Source: an uncultured Collinsella sp. | Lineage (GTDB): Bacteria > Actinomycetota > Coriobacteriia > Coriobacteriales > Coriobacteriaceae | Direction of reading: 5' to 3' | NCBI GenBank assembly: GCA_900542175.1 | Contig: UQNC01000001.1 | Location: 6,831 to 70,830, forward strand | DNA: 64,000 nucleotides | In this document: piece by piece, positions 5,138 to 58,671 of the stretch | Position numbering within the stretch: position 1 is the stretch's first letter | Layout: the number at the start of each line of letters is the position of its first letter | Notes under the pieces: model-generated | The model's input: only the letters and a program-made list of their open reading frames with translations | Database searches by the model: none | What the model was told of the DNA's origin: nothing | Position numbers and translations under genes: made by a program

Positions 5138-5623
5138 ATGAGTAACAAGAAACTGCCCGAGAATGCAACCAAGACTGAGGGTGCTGAGCTCGCCCGTCGT
5201 GGTAGGGGTGAAATTTCTACTGCGACGGCGGTGCCTCACGTGAGCTATGACGATTTGCGCCATGCCGATCGTATTGTCATTGACGGCCTTGAGGTTTTTG
5301 CCAACCATGGCGTGTATCCCGAGGAGAACGCGCTGGGTCAGAAGTTCATCGTTTCTCTGGTGCTCTATGCCGACCTGCGCGCGGCGGGGGAGCACGATAA
5401 CCTGGACGCCTCGATTGACTATGGCTCGGTGTGCCACGATGTTGATGGCTATCTGCGCGAGCATACGTTTAAACTCATCGAGGCGGCAGCCGAGGGGACA
5501 GCCCAGATGCTGCTGCGCCGCTATCCCTCGCTGCTTGGTGTGCGCATAAAGCTCGATAAGCCGTGGGCTCCTGTTGGCCTGCCCCTGGCAAGTTGCGGTG
5601 TCGAGATCGAGCGCGTGCGCTAA
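5138..5623 (+). CDS. folB: dihydroneopterin aldolase
   Basis: IVIDGLEVFANHGVYPEE...GQKFIVSL matches the FolB family; GAAGGAG RBS. Confidence 0.85.
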   Translation: MSNKKLPENATKTEGAELARRGRGEISTATAVPHVSYDDLRHADRIVIDGLEVFANHGVYPEENALGQKFIVSLVLYADLRAAGEHDNLDASIDYGSVCHDVDGYLREHTFKLIEAAAEGTAQMLLRRYPSLLGVRIKLDKPWAPVGLPLASCGVEIERVR

Positions 5624-17509: not shown

Positions 17510-17654
17510 GGTCGCCTCCTTTCATCGGGCTTTTTGCTGATGTTAAAGCGGTGTCGTGACGGCTCGATTTCTGCTACGTTACGATACATTCTCGATTGCG
17601 ATTCCACGATGTTTCGGCTGCGTGACCATTGTGTTTCGCCTTGCCGGGGCGCTG

Positions 17655-18860
17655 ATGGCGAAGGGAGGGGCCGTGCAATACCGTGTTGACCCCAAAAGTG
17701 GTAACCGAATATCCGCTCTGGGTCTGGGCTGCATGAGGTTTCCCGGTGCGCCGGGACACCCTGATGCGAAGACGGCCGATGCCATCATCTCCCGTGCGGT
17801 AGAGCAGGGGATTAATTATCTGGATACCGCGTATCTTTATCCCGGTAACGAGGTGTGCGTGGGCGCCTCACTTGAGCGCTTGGGGCTGCGTGACCGGGTG
17901 TTGCTGGCGACTAAGTTGCCGCACGCTTCGTGCAAGTGCGCAGAGGATTTCGATCGGTTCTTCGACGAGCAGCTGCGCCGTTTGCGGACTGACCATATCG
18001 ACTATTACCTTATGCACAACATCACCTCGCCCGCGCAGTGGGAGCGCGTGGTAGCGTTGGGTATCGAGGACTGGATTGCGCACCAAAAGGCTGCGGGGCG
18101 TATTCGCCAGATAGGTTTTTCGTACCACGGCAGTGCGGCGGACTTCCTCACGATGCTTGACGCGTATGACTGGGACTTTTGCCAGATCCAGTACAACTAC
18201 GCTGGAGAGCGATACCAAGCGGGAACGGCGGGACTCATGGCAGCCGCCGAGCGCGGGCTCGCGGTGTTTGTGATGGAACCGCTTTTGGGTGGACGCCTGG
18301 CGGGCAAACTGCCTCCGCGGGCCCGCGCCGTGCTCGATGACGTACGCGATCCGTACCTGAAGACGCCGGCTGCTTGGGGCCTTTCGTGGGTGTGGAACCA
18401 TCCTCAAGTCACGATGCTGCTTTCGGGCATGACCGATACCGCGCAGGTGGACGAGAACGCGGCATTGGCGGATTGCGCGCTGCCGGATTCGATGACGACA
18501 GAGCAGCTCGATACCATCGCGCGTGTGCTGGGAGAGTTTGAAAAATCGAATCGCGTGCCCTGCACGGGATGCGGCTACTGCATGCCGTGCCCCAAGGGCA
18601 TCAATATTCCCGGTTGCTTTGGCGCCTTCAACGCGAGCTACGCACATAGTTGGTTTACGGGGCTGTCTCAATACTTTACGGCGAGCGCGGTGCGGACGAA
18701 CGAGCCCAAGCTGGTGAGCAATTGTGTCAAGTGCGGTAAATGCGCACGTCACTGCCCGCAGCACATCGATATTCCCGAGCGTCTCGACGATGTGCGCCGA
18801 CGTTTCCAGCCTGGCCCCGTAACGGCCGCGCTTAAAGCCTTTTGCAAAACGCGCTCCTGA
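17655..18860 (+). CDS. aldo/keto reductase fused to a C-terminal 4Fe-4S ferredoxin domain
   Basis: AKR core (LGLGCMRF, YLDTAYLY) plus CTGCGYCMPCP and CVKCGKCARHCP cysteine clusters. Confidence 0.85.
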   Translation: MAKGGAVQYRVDPKSGNRISALGLGCMRFPGAPGHPDAKTADAIISRAVEQGINYLDTAYLYPGNEVCVGASLERLGLRDRVLLATKLPHASCKCAEDFDRFFDEQLRRLRTDHIDYYLMHNITSPAQWERVVALGIEDWIAHQKAAGRIRQIGFSYHGSAADFLTMLDAYDWDFCQIQYNYAGERYQAGTAGLMAAAERGLAVFVMEPLLGGRLAGKLPPRARAVLDDVRDPYLKTPAAWGLSWVWNHPQVTMLLSGMTDTAQVDENAALADCALPDSMTTEQLDTIARVLGEFEKSNRVPCTGCGYCMPCPKGINIPGCFGAFNASYAHSWFTGLSQYFTASAVRTNEPKLVSNCVKCGKCARHCPQHIDIPERLDDVRRRFQPGPVTAALKAFCKTRS

Positions 18861-18945
18861 TGCCCCTTTTATAACTTGCGGTGGAATAGTTCCTGTTTGC
18901 GGCAGAATAGGGGCCAAACAGGAGCTATTCCACCGCAACTGAAGG
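18857..18945 (+). repeat. palindromic repeat element, copy 1: about 85 bp with a 26-bp stem; sits between the AKR stop and the RBS of the next gene
   Basis: CTGATGCCCCTTTTATAAcTTGCGGTGGAATAGTTCCTGTTTG-loop-CAAACAGGAGCTATTCCACCGCAACTGA. The stem mismatch is a G-U pair only on the plus-strand RNA. Confidence 0.6.
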
Positions 18946-18954
18946 GGGCTGTCG

Positions 18955-19973
18955 TGGGCCATCGGGATTCATGTGATGATTTGCGTAAGGTTCGTTGGGG
19001 CGTTTTGGGCGCTGGGCGCATTTCGCATCGATTTGCATCGTCGCTCAAGGAGGTGGACGGGGCACGGCTTGTGGCTGCCGCCGGTCGCACTCCTTCGCAT
19101 GTTGAGGAGTTTTGCAGGGCGTTTTCGATTGATGCCGCGCACAGTTATGCCACGGCTGACGATAGCGGCGATGCGGCTTATGATGCGCTGATTGCCGACC
19201 CCGATGTCGACGCAATCTACTTGGCTCTTCCGCATGGCATGCATACGCGTTGGGCCTGTCGGGCGCTGCGCGCGGGAAAGGCCGTACTGTGCGAAAAGCC
19301 GGCCGTTTTGAATGAAGAAGAGGCCCGTGCGATCACCTCCGTTTCCCACGAGTGCGGTGTGCCGTTTATGGAGGCGATGAAAAATCGGTTTTGTCCGATG
19401 CATACTCGCGTGAAGGGCTTGCTTGCGTCGGGCGAGCTCGGCCGTATCGTTTCGATCGAAAGCGTGCAAAAACTCGATTATGGTGAGTCCCCTTCAAGTT
19501 ATCTGCTCGATCCGTTGCAGGGTGGCTGTCTATATGACATGGGCTGCTATGCGGTCGGGTGGTTTGAGGATCTGCTTGCGGGTGCGTGCGATGTTTCGTC
19601 CCGTGAAGTTCGCTGGCGTGACGTATCGGGCGGCCGCGTGGATTGGGCCGATGAGATTCATATGAGTGTCGGCGGTATACCCATTCATATGGTGTGCGAC
19701 GGCAAGGCAGCGTATGAAAGCCGCTTAACGATTGCCTGCGAGCGGGGCTCGTTGGAAATCGAGCGCCTCCATCGCCCCGAGCTCGCCCATGTGAAGTACT
19801 CCGACGGGCGAATGCTCGAAATAAATGCCCCGTTTGAGGTTGATGATTTCTACGGCGAAATCCAGCATGCGACCCAGCTCATCCGGACGGGGAAACTCGA
19901 GAGTCCCGTCATGCCCCTTGCCGCCACACAGCGCTGCGCGCGCATTATCGATGCAATCCGTCTAGCCCTCTAG
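18955..19973 (+). CDS. Gfo/Idh/MocA family oxidoreductase
   Basis: VRWGVLGAGRISHRF Rossmann fold and EKP motif. GTG start chosen so the repeat element is not translated. Confidence 0.75.
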
Positions 19974-20044
19974 GACTTGGCGCTGACGCATAGGGGATTA
20001 TGACGCTGGCGCCCGTAGCCGTAGTGCTTGGCGGCCCGCATCTC

Positions 20045-20130
20045 TGATGCCCCTTTTATAAGTTGCGGTGGAATAGTTCCTGTTTGCGGCAGAATAGGGC
20101 ATCGACAGGAGCTATTTCACCGCAACTGAT
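20045..20130 (+). repeat. palindromic repeat element, copy 2 (same element as 18857-18945), immediately upstream of the nfo RBS
   Basis: CTGATGCCCCTTTTATAAgTTGCGGTGGAATAGTTCCTG...CAGGAGCTATTTCACCGCAACTGA. Again the mismatches are G-U compatible on the plus strand. Confidence 0.6.
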
Positions 20131-20145
20131 GAGAGGGAGCTGGAG

Positions 20146-21012
20146 ATGCTGACGATTGGGTGTCATCTTTCGACGACGAAGGGCTATCGGGCAATGGGGG
20201 AGACGGCGCTATCCATTGGCGCCAACACCTTTGCATTCTTTACGCGCAACCCGCGCGGCGGCAAGGCGAAAGACCTTGACATGGATGACGTGGCGGCCCT
20301 GCGCAAGCATATGGAACAGAACGATTTTGGTCCACTTGTGGCTCATGCCCCGTATACCTACAACCCTTGCTCGGCCAAAGAGCGGGCGCGTGAGTTTGCC
20401 TTGGAGGCAATGGCCGAGGACTTGCAGCGTCTGGAAGCACTGCCCGGCAACTACTACAACTTCCATCCCGGCGCGCATATGGGACAGGGCTCCGACGCCG
20501 GCATTCAGATGATTGTCGACACCCTGTGCCAAGTGATGTTTGAGGGCCAGCAGACGACGGTGCTGCTCGAGACCATGGCCGGCAAGGGCACCGAGGTGGG
20601 CCGCAGTTTTGAAGAGCTGGCACGCATTATCGAGGGCGTAGTCGCAAGGCGTCCCGAGCTGACGGATAAGCTGGGCGTCTGTCTTGATACCTGCCATGTG
20701 AGCGATGGCGGCTACGACATCATTCACGATCTTGACGGCGTGCTCGACGAGTTCGATCGCGTGGTGGGTATCGACCGCTTGCGTGCCGTACACATCAACG
20801 ATTCCAAAAACCCAACCGGCGCCCATAAGGACCGCCACGAGCGCATTGGCAAGGGCTACCTTGGTAGCGAAAATCTCGGCGGCGGTATGCAGGTTATGCA
20901 GAATATTGTATCGAATAGCCACCTGCGCGCATTGCCATTCATTTTGGAGACGCCGAATGAACTTGCAGGGTATGCAGCAGAAATTACCCTGTTACGCTCA
21001 TTGGAGCAGTAA
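20146..21012 (+). CDS. nfo: deoxyribonuclease IV (endonuclease IV, AP endonuclease family 2)
   Basis: TIM-barrel AP endonuclease motifs (HAPY, TCHVSDGGYD, HINDSK). Confidence 0.9.
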   Translation: MLTIGCHLSTTKGYRAMGETALSIGANTFAFFTRNPRGGKAKDLDMDDVAALRKHMEQNDFGPLVAHAPYTYNPCSAKERAREFALEAMAEDLQRLEALPGNYYNFHPGAHMGQGSDAGIQMIVDTLCQVMFEGQQTTVLLETMAGKGTEVGRSFEELARIIEGVVARRPELTDKLGVCLDTCHVSDGGYDIIHDLDGVLDEFDRVVGIDRLRAVHINDSKNPTGAHKDRHERIGKGYLGSENLGGGMQVMQNIVSNSHLRALPFILETPNELAGYAAEITLLRSLEQ

Positions 21013-23500: not shown

Positions 23501-24250
23501 ATGAGCGAAACGAATTCCAACGAGGTCGTCGTCAGCATTAAGAACCTCCAGAAATCCTTTGGCGACAATGTAGTCCTGCGCGATATCGATCTGGATGTGC
23601 ACAGGGGCGAGGTCGTCGTAGTCCTGGGTCCTTCGGGATCAGGTAAGTCGACGATGCTGCGCTGCATCAACCGCCTTGAAGAGCCTACGAGTGGCTCCAT
23701 CATGGTGGAAGGCGTGGATGTGTGCGCCAAGGGCGTCGACTTAAATAAGGTACGCACGCATCTTGGCATGGTGTTTCAGCAGTTCAACCTGTTCCCGCAC
23801 CTGTCGGTCAAAAAGAACGTCATGCTTGCCCAACAAAAGGTGCTCAAGCGCAGCAAGGAAGAAGCCGAGAAAATAGCCCTCGAGGAACTCACCAAGGTTG
23901 GCCTGGCCGAGCGCATCGACTTTATGCCGAGCCAGCTTTCGGGTGGCCAGCAGCAGCGCGTCGCCATTGCCCGCGCTTTGTCGATGAACCCGCACGTTAT
24001 GCTTTTTGACGAGGCCACGTCGGCGCTTGATCCCGAGCTCGTTCGCGACGTTTTGGGTGTTATGCGTGATTTGGCGCGCGACGGCATGACCATGATCGTC
24101 GTGACGCACGAGATGGGCTTTGCCCGCGACGTCGCCGACCGCGTGGTCTTTATGGACGGCGGCGTTATCGTGGAGGAGGGCTCGCCGAGCGAGGTCTTTG
24201 ACCATCCCAAGAGCGAGCGCACCAAGGCGTTCTTGGGCAACATTTCCTAG
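23501..24250 (+). CDS. amino-acid ABC transporter ATP-binding protein
   Basis: Walker [10 protein letters not shown], signature [15 protein letters not shown] and Walker [11 protein letters not shown]. Confidence 0.95.
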
Positions 24251-24454
24251 ATTGCATTGATATTTGAGCATAGTTTGAGTTGACGGGCCAAGGCGTTGCT
24301 GCCGCGGCCCGTTTTGTATTTTGGTAAAAGTCAGCCGTTACCCCCCAGTGGACGCTTAAGACGCATGTTTGGTGAATTCTGTGGACGCGGTACGGGGCGC
24401 GTGTCAACCATGCGGCCTTTCATACAATTGCATGTTGTTTGAAAAGAAGCCGGA

Positions 24455-24620
24455 CCGTGGGTGCGCTTGGCGCATAAAAGGGAACTGGGTGGGAATCCCA
24501 GACAAGGCGGTTACTGTGTGCGGGGATGTTGTCTTCGCGAGTCAGATTACTTGCCCACGGTCTTCTCGTGTCGAGGGTCTTTTGGAAGCCGCTGGATTCC
24601 GGTGAACAAGAGATGACATC
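24455..24620 (+). ncRNA. riboswitch-like leader, probably the cobalamin class, in the 517-nt 5' region of the surface-protein gene
   Basis: AAAAGGGAAcugGGUGGGAAUCCcag...GCGGUUACUGUG matches the cobalamin-aptamer core (AGGGAA / GGUG.GAAUCC / ...ACUGU). A B12-box-like GCCCACGG is present but the match is incomplete. Confidence 0.45.
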
Positions 24621-24767
24621 ATATATTGCTCCTATGCGTCCCGCCTGTTGTGCGGGCCATTGTTGTGTGCTGTCAGGTGCGGGCGCCCCGCTGTGTCTCG
24701 TTTCCCTTTACATGATCGGCCTCGATTCTTGTTGAGGTAATGATCTTCCAAATCAAGGGGGAGTGGG

Positions 24768-27700
24768 ATGCTCAAAAACATCCGAACTGTTGCGAGGAAA
24801 TTCCTCGTGGTGTTCATGGCGTTTATCTTTGCCAGCTCGAGCACCGGAATGACTGCATTTGCCGAGGAGGTGGGTGCGGGCGTAGCCGTGATGGCTGATC
24901 AGGTTGCCGCGGCGACCGATGCTGAGCAGGGTGCATCGAGCGAAGATGAACCTTCTGCCGATGCTGAAATCGGCGTGTCCGATGACGGCGACAGCGCACA
25001 GGAGCAAGAAGGCTCCGATACTGCCGTGCAGTCCGTTGTGTCCAACGGGGAGAATTCGGCCGCGCAGGCCGAAGTGGTCGGAGCTTCTACTGGGATAGCG
25101 CGCTCGGGCGAGACGGTTGTCGTCAACGACGCGGTCGATATGCCTTCGACCATCGAAGCCGGCGCTACCGTAAAACTCGGTGCGAACATTTCGATGGGTG
25201 CCGACCAGCAGATTGAGACCGTTGCCGGCGTGTTGGACGGTCAGGGTCATACCGTCACCATTAGCGGCAAGGCCGTCGCGAACAACGTAACGGGAACTAT
25301 CCAGAACCTAGGCGTGACGGGCTCCGTCTCGAATAGCGATAATGTGGGCTCCATCGCCATGACGCTTTCCGGTACCGTTCAGATGTGCTGGTCCACGGCG
25401 AGCGTGAACCTGAGCGGTTGGATGGGCTATGCCGGCGGCCTGGTCGGCGGCATGGCGTCCGGCAAGATCGTCAATTCCTATTTTGCCGGTTCGGGCGTCG
25501 AGATGAATGGCGGGCTGGTGGGCGAGGCCCGGGCTGGCTCGCTTTCGAATTGCCTCTATACCGTAGGTTTTTCGCCTGCCGAGATGAACTATAGGGGCTT
25601 TGATAAGGGTAATGCTGCGAAAGCCTCTGACCTTTACCTTTCGTCTGCCGAATCTCTTATCGTGCTCAATGCCAATGCGCCGGCGACCGGGTTTACCTGG
25701 ACGTCCAACGGCGGCCTGCCGATCTTGACGAGTGGATCTGCTCCCGTTGTCGTTAACAAGGATGCGCTCGCCGCTGCCATCGAGTCTGTCGAGGCGCTCA
25801 AGGAGTCCGACTATACATCCGATTCGTGGTCTGCCCTAGCCTCTGCCCTTGCGGACGCAAAGGCCGTAAACGACAATGCCGATGCCTCCCAGTCCGATGT
25901 AAATGCGGCGGTCAAGGCACTCAATGCGGCTAAGGATGCCCTCGAGAAGAAGAAGCCGACGGCCCCCGTCGCCCAGCCCGAGAGCGTCAAGCACATTAAA
26001 TCGCAGGACGACTTCATTTCTATGAACGTCAAGGACGCGAACAACTACTATGTGCTCGACAACGATATCGTGATTGATGATGAGTATTTCTTTGGTCCTT
26101 CGGGTGAGCTCAACTGCACGTTTGACGGCCAGGGCCACACCATTACCTTCAACAATGGCGGTGGCGTCAAGTCGCTCTTCGCGAGCGTCGGCTCCATCGG
26201 CGTTGTCCAAAACGTCTCTTTTGCCGGCGAGCTTAAGAAAGCGGTTGACGGCAAATCGTTCGGTCCGCTCGGCAACCAGATTAGGGGCGCCGTTCTCAAC
26301 TGCTCCACGTCTGTTACGGGCAAGGGCGTTGTGGGCTTTGGCCGTACGCTCGAAGGCGGCGTAATTTCTAACTGCGTGTCTACCGCTGCAGCGACCGGCG
26401 GCGTGCTCTTTGCGAGTTATGGCTCCGGTCAGCTCGTCAATACGTACTGGCAGGAAGGCCTTACCAACAAGGCTCAGTTCCCCGCGAGGGCGCTCGTCAA
26501 CTCCTATGCTGTCGATGCCGACGACATGAAGACGGCGACCTTTGTCGAAAACCTTAACGTCAACCGTGGCGAAAACGGTAGCGCATGGGGCATGGGAGCC
26601 GATGGCTTGCCGTATTTTGGTGAGGACCAGGACTACGAATCGCCCGAGAGCCCTGCCGCAAACAATAAATACGAGGTGACGTTTACATCTGCGCGCACCG
26701 GCAGGACCGTGACTGCCGCCGATGGCATGCTCTACCCGTCTCCCGACGATGTCGTGGTGGGCGAGAACGGTGCCGCCTGCGTCTCGGGCACGCTTGCGCT
26801 CAAGGGTTTGTCTAAGGGTGCTAAGGTGACTTGGGGCACTCCGGACGCTAACAGAGGAGATATCGCCGTTAACGAGGAAACGGGCCTGCTGCACGTATAC
26901 AACGATGCCGTGGGTACGGTGACCGCTACGCTTCATAAGGATGACGGCACCACCGAGAACGTTGCGACCGTCGTGGTGAAGGCGATCTCCAAGTCTATTG
27001 ATGATTTCCAGATTTGGTACAACGGCGAAAACGTGACGGGCGGCACTATTGCGGTTACGGGCTCCGAGGTCAAGAACCTCGAGATCCGTGTTCATTACGC
27101 CGACGCCGCTGAGGGCGAGTACACCCCTGTTTCCTATACGCGTTTTCGCTTTGCGGGTACGCCTTCGAACGTGCTCTATTCCAATCCCGGATCGGCATGC
27201 TTCTACTTTAAGCAGGCGGGCGAGGCCACGATTTCGGTCTCCTCGCGAACGAACGTCGACCTTGCCGATAAGAGCGTAAAGGTTACCTCGACCTATGTGC
27301 CGGCGACGAGCATTTCGCTTGGCTACAACGAGGACGGCAAGACTGTTTATCTGCATGGCCGTAATCCGCTTGCCAAGGGTGCTTTCCTGACCGACAAGGC
27401 TGCACCGGTTGTGGGCCCGGAGTATGCGAGTGACCGTGCAAACTACACGGTCACCTCGAGCGATAGTGCAGTCGCCGAGTACACTACAAGCGGCGATATT
27501 GGATTTACGCCGTATAAGGCCGGCAAGACGACATTCGAGGCGACGGTCGAAAACCAGGACGGCAGCGTTATCTCCTCGGGCAAGCGAGAGGTTACCTACG
27601 CTTACCGAAACCCGCTGAAATCGGTGACCATCGCAAATGCTCCCGCGTCCATTAAGGCCGGCAAGACGGTCGGGCTCGACCTGAGCTATGTGGGCGAGAA

Positions 27701-29315
27701 CGATGCCGAGGGCTGGAGTGTCTCCGAGCCCGGCATGATATGGACCGTGACGGGCGCAGATGGCCAGGATGCGTCGGATGCTGTGAGCATCGACCGTCGT
27801 GCTCTGGGTGACTGGAAGCACGTTGACGGTGCTCCCGACGACGGGCTGTTTGTAGCGAGCGGAACCTATGTTCTAACGGCCAACAAGGCCGGTACCTATA
27901 CGGTGACGGGTACTCCGGTCGACCAGACTGCCGGCGCCAAGGCCGTCTCCTTTGAGATTACGGTTGACGGTATCGCCGCCTCGCCGGATAACGAGGCGCA
28001 GGCCGATAAGGGTGCCCTCTCTGCCGCCAAGTACTTTGACGCCAACCGCACGACCGATGCGTACACCTATGGCCAGGAATGGGAAATCTACGCCTTCGCA
28101 AAATCGGGGCGCAAGATCGACGACGCGCTTATCAAGAATTACAAGAAGTCTCTTGCCGACCATAAGGCCGAGTGGGCCGGTAGCACCGCCAAGGTAACGG
28201 ATTGCGAGCGCGTTGCGCTTACGTTGGCTGCACTTGGCGAGAACATTACGTCTTTTGATGGCGTTAACCTTGCTGCCGTCATATGCTCGCACGGCGACCT
28301 TGCGGCTTCGGCGAATAACTTGGTCTATGCGTTGATCGCCCTTGACGAGGCGCGCGTTTCGGATGAAGCGCTGTCTGCATTCGGCTCGTCCTGGACACGT
28401 GCTCAGCTTGTTTGCACGCTGCTCACGTTCCAAAACTCGGATGGCGGCTTTACCATTGATACGGCTGGTGCAAGCAACGTCGATATGACCGCCATGGCGC
28501 TGCAGGCGCTTGCGCCCTATGTTGACGGCGACGCATGTGCCGCTGCCCTGGCTTCGAATGGTCAGCTCTCTGTTGCGTCCGCTGTCGACAAAGCGCTCGG
28601 CTTCCTTAAGGGGCGGATGAACGGTCTTTGCGATTTTGGGTCTGTTGAGTCGAATGCCCAGGTGCTGCTTGCTCTTGTGGCGCTCGGCAAGGACCCCGCA
28701 AATTCCAAGAACGGTTTTGCGACGGGCGCAAATAGTCTGATTACCGCGATTGCCGCCTATGAAGTTGCTGACGGCAAGGGATACGCTCACACCATGGGAT
28801 CAGACGGCAAACCCGGCAATGCCAACGCGCTTGCCACCGTGCAGGTCTTGCGGGCCCTTTCGGCCTATAAGTTCGCGGGTGCCGGCGTGAGTTGGACCAA
28901 GATCGGCAATGTGAAGGCCGGCACCGTCAAGCCGAGTGATCCTAAAGAGCCTGTGACGCCCGAGGTTCCCGTACCTACGGTTCCGACGAAGAACCCGACA
29001 CCTGCGGTTGTGCCGCCCGCCTCGCAGGATGGCAACGGCACCGGTGGAAAGCAGGGCGCTACCACTTCGCAGGATGGCGCGAAGCCGGAGACGGCGGAGC
29101 ACGCGGATTCCGCCAAGAGCGAATCCGGCAAGGAGTCTAGCTCTGACAAATCTTCTGGTTCGAAGGCGAAGAGCGCTACTGCCGCCGCATCGCGCAAGGA
29201 TGCCTCGGCTGGGCAGAGCGGCGTGAATCCTGTTGCCGTTGCCGGTGTCGTCGCTGGCATCGTGTGCCTTGCGGTCATTGGCGCGTGGTTCGTGCGTTCT
29301 CGTAAGAACGCGTAG
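24768..29315 (+). CDS. giant cell-surface protein (1515 aa): signal peptide, acidic linker, GLUG-like beta-helix repeats, FIVAR domain, Ig-like (Big) domains, alpha/alpha-toroid prenyltransferase-like repeats, Pro/Thr/Lys-rich stalk and C-terminal TM anchor
   Basis: GYAGGLVGG...NGGLVGEA (GLUG); FDGQGHT[IV] repeated; YTSDSWSALASALADAKAV (FIVAR); QNSDGGF (prenyltransferase/squalene-cyclase repeat); C-terminal VAVAGVVAGIVCLAVIGAWFVRSRKNA with no LPXTG. Confidence 0.85.
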   Translation: MLKNIRTVARKFLVVFMAFIFASSSTGMTAFAEEVGAGVAVMADQVAAATDAEQGASSEDEPSADAEIGVSDDGDSAQEQEGSDTAVQSVVSNGENSAAQAEVVGASTGIARSGETVVVNDAVDMPSTIEAGATVKLGANISMGADQQIETVAGVLDGQGHTVTISGKAVANNVTGTIQNLGVTGSVSNSDNVGSIAMTLSGTVQMCWSTASVNLSGWMGYAGGLVGGMASGKIVNSYFAGSGVEMNGGLVGEARAGSLSNCLYTVGFSPAEMNYRGFDKGNAAKASDLYLSSAESLIVLNANAPATGFTWTSNGGLPILTSGSAPVVVNKDALAAAIESVEALKESDYTSDSWSALASALADAKAVNDNADASQSDVNAAVKALNAAKDALEKKKPTAPVAQPESVKHIKSQDDFISMNVKDANNYYVLDNDIVIDDEYFFGPSGELNCTFDGQGHTITFNNGGGVKSLFASVGSIGVVQNVSFAGELKKAVDGKSFGPLGNQIRGAVLNCSTSVTGKGVVGFGRTLEGGVISNCVSTAAATGGVLFASYGSGQLVNTYWQEGLTNKAQFPARALVNSYAVDADDMKTATFVENLNVNRGENGSAWGMGADGLPYFGEDQDYESPESPAANNKYEVTFTSARTGRTVTAADGMLYPSPDDVVVGENGAACVSGTLALKGLSKGAKVTWGTPDANRGDIAVNEETGLLHVYNDAVGTVTATLHKDDGTTENVATVVVKAISKSIDDFQIWYNGENVTGGTIAVTGSEVKNLEIRVHYADAAEGEYTPVSYTRFRFAGTPSNVLYSNPGSACFYFKQAGEATISVSSRTNVDLADKSVKVTSTYVPATSISLGYNEDGKTVYLHGRNPLAKGAFLTDKAAPVVGPEYASDRANYTVTSSDSAVAEYTTSGDIGFTPYKAGKTTFEATVENQDGSVISSGKREVTYAYRNPLKSVTIANAPASIKAGKTVGLDLSYVGENDAEGWSVSEPGMIWTVTGADGQDASDAVSIDRRALGDWKHVDGAPDDGLFVASGTYVLTANKAGTYTVTGTPVDQTAGAKAVSFEITVDGIAASPDNEAQADKGALSAAKYFDANRTTDAYTYGQEWEIYAFAKSGRKIDDALIKNYKKSLADHKAEWAGSTAKVTDCERVALTLAALGENITSFDGVNLAAVICSHGDLAASANNLVYALIALDEARVSDEALSAFGSSWTRAQLVCTLLTFQNSDGGFTIDTAGASNVDMTAMALQALAPYVDGDACAAALASNGQLSVASAVDKALGFLKGRMNGLCDFGSVESNAQVLLALVALGKDPANSKNGFATGANSLITAIAAYEVADGKGYAHTMGSDGKPGNANALATVQVLRALSAYKFAGAGVSWTKIGNVKAGTVKPSDPKEPVTPEVPVPTVPTKNPTPAVVPPASQDGNGTGGKQGATTSQDGAKPETAEHADSAKSESGKESSSDKSSGSKAKSATAAASRKDASAGQSGVNPVAVAGVVAGIVCLAVIGAWFVRSRKNA

Positions 29316-29455
29316 CAATTCAATGCGCATTGCGCCCGCCGTTTGACGCGCGGGCGCGACTATGCCGCCCATGGCGCGACTTTACAGATGAACGGGCCCC
29401 GGGTCTAGACGACCTGGGGCCCGTTTGCGTTGCGGTTGGCGTGGCGATGGGAGTT

Positions 29456-29875
29456 TTAAGCCAGCTCGGCGCCCAGGGCCTTGCAGGCGGCTTCGCCCTC
29501 GTCGTCAGGCGCGTCGAAGCAGATGACGGAATCGACGACATTGACGCCGGCCTCATCGGCGTCAGCCTTCCAATTGTCCATCCACTCGCCCTCGGCCCAC
29601 GAATAGGAGCCAAACAGGACGACCTTCTTGTCGCCCAGGTTCTCCTTGACCTCATCCCACATCGGCTGGAACTCGTCGTACTCGAGTTCCTCGGAGCCCA
29701 TGGCGGGGCAGCCGAAGGCGATGGCGTCGTAGTCGGCAGTCTTGTCGGCAGAGAAGTCGGCACAGGTGATGACCTCGGCCTCGGCGCCGGCGGACACCGC
29801 GCCCTCGGCGACGAAGTTTGCCATGGCCTCGGTATTGCCCGTTCCGCTCCAGTAGACGACGGCGATCTTGCTCAT
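29456..29875 (-). CDS. flavodoxin (short-chain)
   Basis: MSKIAVVYWSGTGNTE FMN-binding signature. Confidence 0.9.
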   Translation of the reverse strand: MSKIAVVYWSGTGNTEAMANFVAEGAVSAGAEAEVITCADFSADKTADYDAIAFGCPAMGSEELEYDEFQPMWDEVKENLGDKKVVLFGSYSWAEGEWMDNWKADADEAGVNVVDSVICFDAPDDEGEAACKALGAELA

Positions 29876-58379: not shown

Positions 58380-58570
58380 GAATCCGCATAGCGTGGACCC
58401 AATGTCCGGATAGCGCTCCCGCATTGCTGCAGACAGTCCTGCGGGTGTTTCCCGCAGGCCCACCAGGTTGTTCGTGCCTGAAAAACCCAATTCGGCGGGT
58501 TTCGCCTCCCCGCGGGGTCAAAGCCTGCCGGCTCGCCCGCGGCTCTTCGTGCCCGCGCCTCTATCAAGTG
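58380..58570 (-). ncRNA. lysine riboswitch (L-box) in the leader of lysA-dapA-dapB-dapH
   Basis: On the minus strand: AGAGGCGC...GGGGAGGCGAAACCCGCCGAA...ACUGUC...GGGAGCGCUAUCC. These match the L-box elements (AGAGGUGC / GGGGAGCG..CGCCGAAG / CUGUCA / GGAGGGCUAUC of B. subtilis lysC). Confidence 0.65.
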
Positions 58571-58671
58571 GTAACGACCCTACCACGTTGCACTTTACCA
58601 AACAAGAGTATTCGTATATAACGTTTAAAAAATGCAGGGATATGCTAGAAACAAGGGCGTCACAATTCTGC

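Follow-up and report, generated by a model that had tools for sequence, protein, structure and literature searches.

Two copies of an imperfect palindrome in a 64,000-nucleotide stretch of an uncultured Collinsella sp. (assembly GCA_900542175.1, contig UQNC01000001.1, positions 6,831 to 70,830; hereafter the window) belong to an apparently undescribed family of repetitive extragenic palindromes (REPs), which is found throughout the genus Collinsella. With a probability of roughly 0.6, we regard these elements as hairpins at gene 3' ends, similar to the REPs of Escherichia coli and to the TRIT ('Tuberculosis Rho-independent terminator') of mycobacteria, that act either as a barrier on the mRNA or as a terminator, weak and bidirectional. 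The first-pass annotation of the window had put forward, as its lead idea, a cis-regulatory RNA in the 5' untranslated region (5'-UTR) shared by two genes, and had listed a REP-like stabiliser among the other candidates. The lead idea is contradicted by the dispersal of the family over about 45 or more unrelated loci, after stop codons, and the stabiliser fits the data.

Build and distribution of the family

The element is about 90 bp long. An invariant foot of 13-14 bp (left side GTTGCGGTG(G/A)AATA, right side TATT(C/T)CACCGCAAC) is followed inwards by an inner stem of 7 bp, of which there are three flavours: GTTCCTG/CAGGAAC, (C/G)GGACTG/CAGTCC(G/C) and CGGTCTG/CAGACCG. The two arms of an element are concordant in flavour (T1/T1 in 108 elements, T2/T2 in 13, T3/T3 in 2 and T3/T2 in 1), and T1 is never combined with T2 or T3. 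The feet are separated by 37 nt in 140 of 153 elements (92%). The 23-nt centre differs by 67% between loci, which is close to the value for unrelated sequence, and the arms of paralogs differ by about 10%. The centres are also self-complementary: in 42 of 46 loci the real centre folds more stably than its shuffled versions, the mean gain being 3.9 kcal/mol. A role for the centres as antisense or guide sequences was rejected, as their matches within the same 8-kb locus average 8.0 nt, against 7.3 nt in shuffles.

Outside the feet, the 5' side is C-rich and ends in ATAA, and the 3' side starts with TTAT and is then G-rich; the same flanks are found between genes in the same direction and between convergent genes. 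Real flanks lengthen the helix more than shuffled flanks do (33 of 47, p = 2e-5). Locus-specific complementarity of this outer stem was rejected, because a 3' flank from another locus folds equally well, and the outer arms are therefore a consensus of the family and not an adaptation to each locus. With 91% of the core stem cells paired and folding energies of -40 to -61 kcal/mol, the element is an imperfect palindrome that can form a hairpin.

To collect the family, representative genomes were scanned once with an 18-nt arm pattern, GCGGTGRAATAGYTCCTG, which is specific to inner-stem type 1. Matches to the pattern lay in at least 120 genome stretches, nearly all of them from Collinsella or Coriobacteriaceae, and the fetched loci together with the window contain 136 paired elements, grouped by their flanks into about 45 distinct clusters or loci. 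A hidden Markov model (HMM) of the family gave 162 matches in 892 kb. About 35 of these are elements that did not trigger the fetch, and from them a density of about one element every 25 kb was estimated, which corresponds to roughly 90 copies per genome. Of the 10 matches from a scan of viral contigs, true paired elements account for two, on contigs that resemble Collinsella (58-59% GC); the remaining eight consist of one arm each, in sequence with a GC content of 34-54%, and a phage origin was rejected on this ground. No description of the family was found in literature searches, either on REPs and inverted repeats of Collinsella or with the sequence of the motif. HMP2_10134, a candidate structured RNA of 50 bp (PMC8040213 supplement), occurs in Collinsella only and adjoins many unrelated genes; judged by its description, it may represent an earlier, partial detection of the family.

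Some loci of the fetched set deserve separate mention. Locus L119 has two elements of different inner-stem types (620-702 and 720-785) about 20 nt apart, an arrangement that recalls the REP clusters known as BIMEs. In L005 (5693-7069), and also in L012, L101 and L116, two elements with unrelated centres lie 1.3 kb apart around an open reading frame (ORF) of 335 aa; this ORF (5823-6830 of L005, minus strand) has an atypical codon usage and was missed by the codon-based caller. A lone arm is found near a contig end in L118 (81-99) and near both ends of L085, which is a whole contig of 1466 bp, and this suggests that the palindromes break short-read assemblies. Locus L076 (contig CAVCBD010000122.1) is labelled Acutalibacteraceae and carries two elements whose flanks cluster with Collinsella contigs; the label is probably an assembly binning error.

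Gene context, constraint and strand

Gene contexts were assigned with our own simple codon-usage caller; in a spot-check, Pfam domains were present in 19 of 20 upstream genes. None of the 136 elements lies within a called gene. Counted by locus, 23 contexts are tandem, 18 convergent and one divergent, against an intergenic baseline of 58/21/21%, so that divergent contexts are depleted (P = 6e-4) and convergent ones enriched (P = 1e-3); the single divergent case is real. The inner stem starts no more than 30 nt from a stop codon on 35 of 70 locus-sides, with a mode at 14-18 nt. Of 27 tandem loci, 20 have their next start codon at a distance of at least 72 nt, even when the longest possible ORF is taken. 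The upstream genes are unrelated in function and include SelB, MFS, MatE, peptidases, DegV, RlmL, GntR, LuxR, Ppx, YaaA and XdhC, among others. The family is thus extragenic, located at 3' ends or between cistrons and present in many copies, as are REPs in the broad sense. A count of copies and of the genes next to them had been set beforehand as a check on the first-pass annotation, and its outcome, a dispersed family next to unrelated genes, speaks against a riboswitch. The operator for a dimeric regulator that was also considered there does not fit the data, given that divergent regions are avoided and stop codons favoured.

The sites are stable. In 398 comparisons of orthologous flanks the element is kept in nearly all, and neither a clean empty site nor a target duplication was seen among them. 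The exceptions are one partial deletion (L093 compared with L021) and one case in which an unrelated hairpin takes the place of the element (L047 and L099 compared with L103). In the latter case, L047 (~2650-2700) and L099 (~5450-5500) have a 12-bp hairpin, TGTGACAAAGGG-ACAG-CCCTTTGTCACA, after the same stop codon that is followed by a family element in L103 (2905-2970), which suggests that the two are functionally interchangeable as gene-end hairpins.

Divergence between orthologs in the fetched set amounts to 2-4% in the arms, 8.7% in the centres and 7-10% in the flanks. As a fetch by exact arm match introduces an ascertainment bias, the analysis was repeated on elements that did not trigger it. 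In this bias-free set of 23 ortholog pairs, divergence is 1.3-2.7% in the feet, against 9.2% in the inner stem and centre and 10-17% in the flanks; the feet change about 5 times more slowly than the sequence around them. Because the low divergence of the feet persists in elements free of the bias, we conclude from these alignments that strong purifying selection or homogenisation acts on the foot sequence, and a pairing constraint on the inner stem. Covariation, suggested earlier as a check on the structure, gave a divided result. A count in fixed register over 73 sequences found no excess over shuffles; the core is paired through invariance, the two polymorphic positions assort independently, and covariation became visible once the divergent subfamilies, with other inner-stem types, were included. 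One stem position is highly polymorphic (G·T 42, G-C 40, A-T 27 and A·C 24), with the two arms varying independently.

Under the gene-end reading, the end of the upstream gene's transcript would contain the element, folded as a hairpin with an energy of -40 to -60 kcal/mol. This hairpin may block 3'-to-5' degradation and mark the RNA end, in the way of an E. coli REP or a mycobacterial TRIT. As a terminator it would be weak at most, and bidirectional, because no U-tract follows the hairpin. The invariance of the foot probably reflects a sequence-specific factor that reads it.

Several observations weigh against this reading. We infer transcription through the element, the RNA 3' ends and the stabilising effect from sequence data. 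Neither window hairpin is followed by a U-tract, the next sequence being CUGAAGGGGG in copy 1 and CUGAUGAGAGGG in copy 2; over the whole family the enrichment in T is modest (downstream T 0.37, compared with upstream A 0.29), and efficient intrinsic termination is doubtful. A passive hairpin barrier leaves the strict conservation of the foot sequence unexplained. The evidence from the strands is marginal as well. The mismatches in the window stems are indeed T opposite G on the plus strand in both copies, as the first-pass annotation had pointed out, and it had taken them as G-U pairs that argue for a functional RNA. In the family the argument fails, since A·C is nearly as common as G·U in the sense-oriented tandem loci (22 events compared with 35, p = 0.11). 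In 18-19 of 27 loci, RNA of the sense strand is more stable than that of the antisense strand, with a mean advantage of 2-3 kcal/mol (p about 0.055). The strand data give a hint of RNA-level selection at best, a transcription-associated C-to-T bias could in our view yield the same pattern, and the role or origin of the element may be purely at the DNA level. Finally, the copy numbers are estimates, given the at least 120 stretches listed and the type-1 pattern, and the gene caller is crude.

The duplicated pair in the window

The repeat search found a single direct-repeat family in the window, consisting of two copies of 86 nt that are 92% identical and 1187 nt apart (Table 1). Two near-identical palindromic copies had been reported in the first-pass annotation, and they are real, the coordinates of the second being corrected here by one base. 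The stems, described as perfect, are near-perfect: the inverted arms measure 24 nt with 96% complementarity in copy 1 (18876-18899/18915-18938) and 33 nt with 85% complementarity in copy 2 (20051-20083/20105-20137), and the hairpin of each copy has about 24 bp. Elsewhere in the window, neither the arm 20-mer nor the 18-nt leader is present, shuffles giving an expectation of 0.00 and 0.02 matches, respectively, and a search of the window with the family HMM found the two copies and no others. As plus-strand RNA, copies 1 and 2 fold with -61.4 and -60.0 kcal/mol (z of -8.1 and -9.0), and the minus strand is 13-19 kcal/mol weaker (-48.4 and -41.1 kcal/mol). An Rfam scan of the entire window at gathering scores, one of the checks suggested earlier, had no match at the elements. 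A permissive scan of 18780-20200 gave sub-threshold matches to microRNA (miRNA) precursors only, as a generic long hairpin may do. In a promoter and terminator scan, no convincing promoter was found in or before the window elements, and the elements were not called as terminators.

Table 1. Coordinates of the two element copies, their parts and the adjacent genes (positions in the window)
Feature	Position	Strand	Description	Evidence
Copy 1, 86-nt direct repeat	18857..18942	+	Leader CTGATGCCCCTTTTATAA, hairpin, CTGA; starts on the aldo/keto reductase stop codon	Repeat search; family HMM, E 9e-22
Copy 2, 86-nt direct repeat	20044..20129	+	70 nt past the Gfo/Idh/MocA stop codon; directly before the nfo ribosome-binding site	Family HMM, E 6e-21; repeat search; pairwise alignment
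Copy 1 inner hairpin, 65 nt	18875..18939	.	Foot CTTGCGGTGGAATA, inner stem GTTCCTG(TTT), 17-nt centre, mirror arm	Inverted repeat, fold, family alignment
Copy 2 inner hairpin, 65 nt	20062..20126	.		Inverted repeat, fold, family alignment
Copy 1 5' outer arm CCCCTTTTATAA	18863..18874	+	Fits the C-rich 5' flank consensus of the family; pairs with the G-run 18940-18948	Plus-strand fold, flank profiles, flank shuffle/swap test
Copy 1 3' outer arm TGAAGGGGG	18940..18948	+	Doubles as Shine-Dalgarno-like run, 5 nt before the GTG start at 18954	Sequence, fold, family-wide G-rich flank
Copy 2 5' outer arm CCCCTTTTATAA	20050..20061	+		Sequence, fold, flank profiles
Copy 2 3' outer arm TGATGAGAGGGAG	20127..20139	+	Doubles as Shine-Dalgarno-like run before the nfo ATG at 20146	Sequence, fold, flank profiles, alignment
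Aldo/keto reductase	17556..18860	+	C-terminal 4Fe-4S domain	Pfam PF00248, Fer4 domains
Gfo/Idh/MocA oxidoreductase	18954..19973	+	GTG start; bracketed by both copies	Pfam PF01408, PF22725; NCBIfam matches all under cut-off
nfo (deoxyribonuclease IV)	20146..21012	+		TIGR00587, 267.8 bits (cut-off 129.65); Pfam

The sequence shared by the two copies runs from CTGATG through the hairpin to CTGA. In copy 1, the CTGATG includes the TGA stop codon of the reductase (18858-18860), 14 nt before the inner stem, a spacing typical of the family. Beyond CTGA, each copy has a short, G-rich run similar to a Shine-Dalgarno sequence, and these runs have no clear homology in the pairwise alignment. As the leader, including the context of the reductase stop codon, is common to both, the two copies are paralogs that arose by a direct duplication, local and ~86-100 bp in length, around the Gfo/Idh/MocA gene. 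This gene is present in all 8 genomes sampled at the locus, and no empty site was seen among them. Both window copies have the derived CAGGAGCT, and eight related genomes have CAGGAACT. In L024 and in L044 the two copies of the same genome have the same centre (loop), and in L050, L053 and L054 copy 2 has a compensatory 4-bp swap in the inner stem, from GTTC/GAAC to CGGT/ACCG. The window copies are thus kept alike by gene conversion, and copy 2 of L050, L053 and L054 has drifted instead. The T·G mismatch that the window copies share does not represent two independent events, because it goes back to a single derived substitution spread by gene conversion.

The G-rich runs, GAAGGGGG (18941-18948) and GAGAGGGAG (20131-20139), lie directly 3' of the hairpins, and in the plus-strand fold the helix extends past the repeat core, with CCCCUUUUAU on the 5' side pairing with these runs. 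The first-pass annotation had noticed that each copy abuts a ribosome-binding site (RBS). The adjacency is real for both copies, and the G-run itself is the outer arm seen throughout the family, present also where no gene follows. In the window, the G-rich outer arm has come to serve as the Shine-Dalgarno sequence for the gene that follows. The base of the hairpin would mask the RBS, either reducing translation of the downstream gene or tying it to the upstream one, and this base could be opened by a ribosome that terminates translation of the reductase, whose stop codon lies 2 nt ahead of the C-run. The orthologs gave no compensatory support for such masking or translational coupling.

The earlier calls of the neighbouring genes, Gfo/Idh/MocA and nfo, hold by the Pfam and TIGR00587 matches. 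An operon for an amino-acid ABC transporter starts 18 nt after nfo. As there is no room or signal for promoters between these genes, the window copies are most likely intercistronic, in the order aldo/keto reductase, Gfo/Idh/MocA, nfo and ABC transporter. In our own codon-usage model, the reductase scores 46 and the Gfo/Idh/MocA gene 19.6, against 75-400 for their neighbours; these low scores may reflect a foreign origin or a low expression.

Two riboswitches were identified elsewhere in the window by Rfam. A lysine riboswitch is located at 58403-58571 on the minus strand (78 bits, full-length match), and a cobalamin riboswitch at 24442-24572 on the plus strand, with an ORF of 1515 aa behind it (24768-29315). 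The stretch with the cobalamin riboswitch and this ORF has no counterpart in the related L044 and L053, where homology jumps from window position 24250 to 29456, and it appears to be a strain-variable insertion.

Competing explanations and known systems

Among the other explanations, a tentative one concerns the reader of the hairpins. Because the 13-14-bp foot is invariant, the 37-nt spacing strict and the interior freely varying yet always paired, the hairpins might be substrates of a dedicated, sequence-specific Collinsella factor, either a hairpin-binding protein of termination or RNA processing, such as has been postulated for the mycobacterial TRITs, or a single-strand DNA enzyme other than a RAYT. 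If this is true, about 100 gene ends per genome would be under factor-dependent 3'-end formation that replaces classical U-tract terminators in this lineage.

We consider it rather doubtful that the elements are selfish mobile DNA of the REPIN or MITE kind, in which the feet would be recognition sites of a transposase (RAYT-like or other), the hairpin would be copied as single-stranded DNA, and the location at gene ends would reflect tolerated insertions without a host function. The build is REPIN-like, with conserved inverted ends, a spacer kept for length and foldability over sequence, and compensatory changes (PMC3116915); the foot is conserved beyond the needs of pairing, clusters of two adjacent elements exist (for instance L119), and RNA is not clearly favoured by the strand test. 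However, a tblastn search of about 0.96 Mb of element-bearing Collinsella DNA, with E. coli RayT and an IS200 TnpA as queries, found no RAYT- or IS200-like ORF (best E = 0.66), and the canonical guide tetranucleotide is absent 5' of the foot. The centres are unrelated between loci, which means that there are no recent copies, and the orthologous sites are nearly always filled, without a clean empty site bearing a target duplication. The narrow spacing from stop codon to stem suggests more than tolerance. A MITE in the strict sense was rejected on similar grounds, for the inverted ends are present and the interiors are unrelated.

An improbable explanation is a site in double-stranded DNA for a dimeric regulator or a nucleoid-associated protein, be it an operator or a chromosome-organising site. 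Invariant inverted feet of 13-14 bp at a fixed spacing of 37 bp do suggest recognition by a protein, and the polymorphic stem positions are independent between the arms. Concordant inner-stem flavours and self-complementary centres, on the other hand, indicate selection or templating for intrastrand pairing, which a linear duplex does not need; the avoidance of divergent promoter regions and the coupling to stop codons are the opposite of what an operator would show, and the neighbouring genes form no regulon.

More improbable still is an attC- or cassette-type recombination site, in which case the Gfo/Idh/MocA gene would be a cassette captured between two sites. This idea draws on the single 1.19-kb gene bracketed by near-identical direct copies of a palindrome, on its low codon-usage score relative to its neighbours, and on the duplicated leader with the upstream stop-codon context, as expected from the integration of a circle at the element. 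Against it stands the presence of the gene in every genome sampled at the locus. Most elements are single and dispersed after core genes, arrays are lacking, no integrase was found in the neighbourhoods inspected, and other pairs of elements that flank a gene have unrelated centres; an integron attC site was rejected for these elements. The orientation of the boxes (GTT outer 5', AAC outer 3') is moreover the reverse of that of the R''/R' boxes of attC.

The least probable explanation is the 5'-UTR cis-regulatory RNA, a riboswitch or protein-binding leader that would give the Gfo/Idh/MocA gene and nfo a shared ligand or binder: both window copies abut an RBS that is sequestered in the fold, the plus strand folds far better and the window mismatches are G·U on that strand, but the reading is largely refuted by the distribution, in that the genes whose stop codons the elements follow are unrelated and the next start is usually distant, that 18 of 42 loci are convergent and have no downstream gene to regulate, that the unpaired part is the variable centre only, with no conserved unpaired pocket, that A·C mismatches are common in sense orientation, and that Rfam returned nothing above sub-threshold miRNA-hairpin noise. 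With neither a coherent gene set nor conserved unpaired nucleotides, the class of riboswitches and 5'-UTR regulators was rejected.

The hairpin at gene 3' ends remains our preferred reading. A palindromic repeat at gene ends is a known kind of element, and the family itself is apparently new in an important gut genus, with an unusually clean build that points to a reader protein. Collinsella is among the most abundant actinobacterial genera of the human gut, and to our knowledge almost nothing is known about its transcript ends. A conserved hairpin at roughly one gene end in twenty-five would be a practical landmark for the ends of transcription units and for boundaries inside operons, and the palindromes may also be a cause of assembly breaks. 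Palindromes of this family ahead of a gene should not be counted as candidate riboswitches. At the locus described here, the outer arm reused as the RBS of two genes and the duplicated junction that the element brackets show how such repeats can reshape operons.

Regarding known systems, the element shares with intrinsic terminators a stable hairpin soon after the stop codon and an enrichment between convergent genes. It differs from them in having no consistent U-tract, a far longer stem and a stem sequence that is conserved across unrelated loci, and this class was rejected on account of the U-tract and of the negative terminator scan of the window copies. The Correia or NEMIS elements of Neisseria are palindromic repeats of ~100 bp near genes, which are co-transcribed, form long hairpins that can be cut by RNase III and alter mRNA stability. 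Their interiors are homologous, and they have TA target duplications and a clear presence/absence polymorphism, none of which is seen in the Collinsella element.

The REPs of E. coli stabilise upstream mRNA, and REPs near stop codons affect translation. Like REPs, BIMEs and REPINs, the Collinsella element is repetitive, extragenic and palindromic, has conserved inverted ends and a spacer kept for its length and its capacity to form a hairpin, shows compensatory changes, lies at 3' ends or between cistrons and is restricted to a species or genus. REPINs have been described as having conserved ends, compensatory changes and a spacer that varies in sequence and is fixed in length (PMC3116915). 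The canonical definition of a REP places a guide tetranucleotide, GT[AG]G, at 0-2 nt on the 5' side of the foot of the hairpin (PMC6006769); in the Collinsella consensus the foot begins with GTTG after ATAA, and GTGG occurs inside the stem only. A canonical system further comprises a cognate Y1 (HUH) transposase gene with copies on its flanks, a REPtron. The Collinsella element also differs from REPs and REPINs by its longer arms (21-24 bp), its unrelated centres and its loci, which are stable across species. Signs of replication, such as near-identical copies elsewhere or insertion/excision polymorphism, were not seen in the family, and the stable loci and unrelated centres argue against recent replication.

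The closest resemblance is to TRIT, a palindrome present in 147 copies at gene ends of Mycobacterium tuberculosis, which is bidirectional, conserved in sequence and restricted to one genus, and for which the authors inferred an unknown factor binding to this motif in double-stranded form (Gardner et al. 2011, PMC3152330). Both families occur in an actinobacterial genus with few classical terminators, at about 100-150 copies per genome, and both are bidirectional palindromic hairpins conserved in sequence and structure, with a narrow position at gene ends and confined to one genus. Their sequences are unrelated. TRIT is centred around -8 and lies largely inside the coding sequence, whereas the inner stem of the Collinsella element starts about 14-28 nt past the stop codon; the latter is also longer, and has a locus-specific centre of fixed length and C-rich and G-rich outer arms. 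Terminator activity is putative for both. The resemblance would be one of mode of action, and membership in the TRIT family is not claimed. The Collinsella element would be the second actinobacterial case, after the TRITs of mycobacteria, of gene-end hairpins conserved in both sequence and shape; this double conservation points to a reader protein, and the element is a clean bait for finding it.

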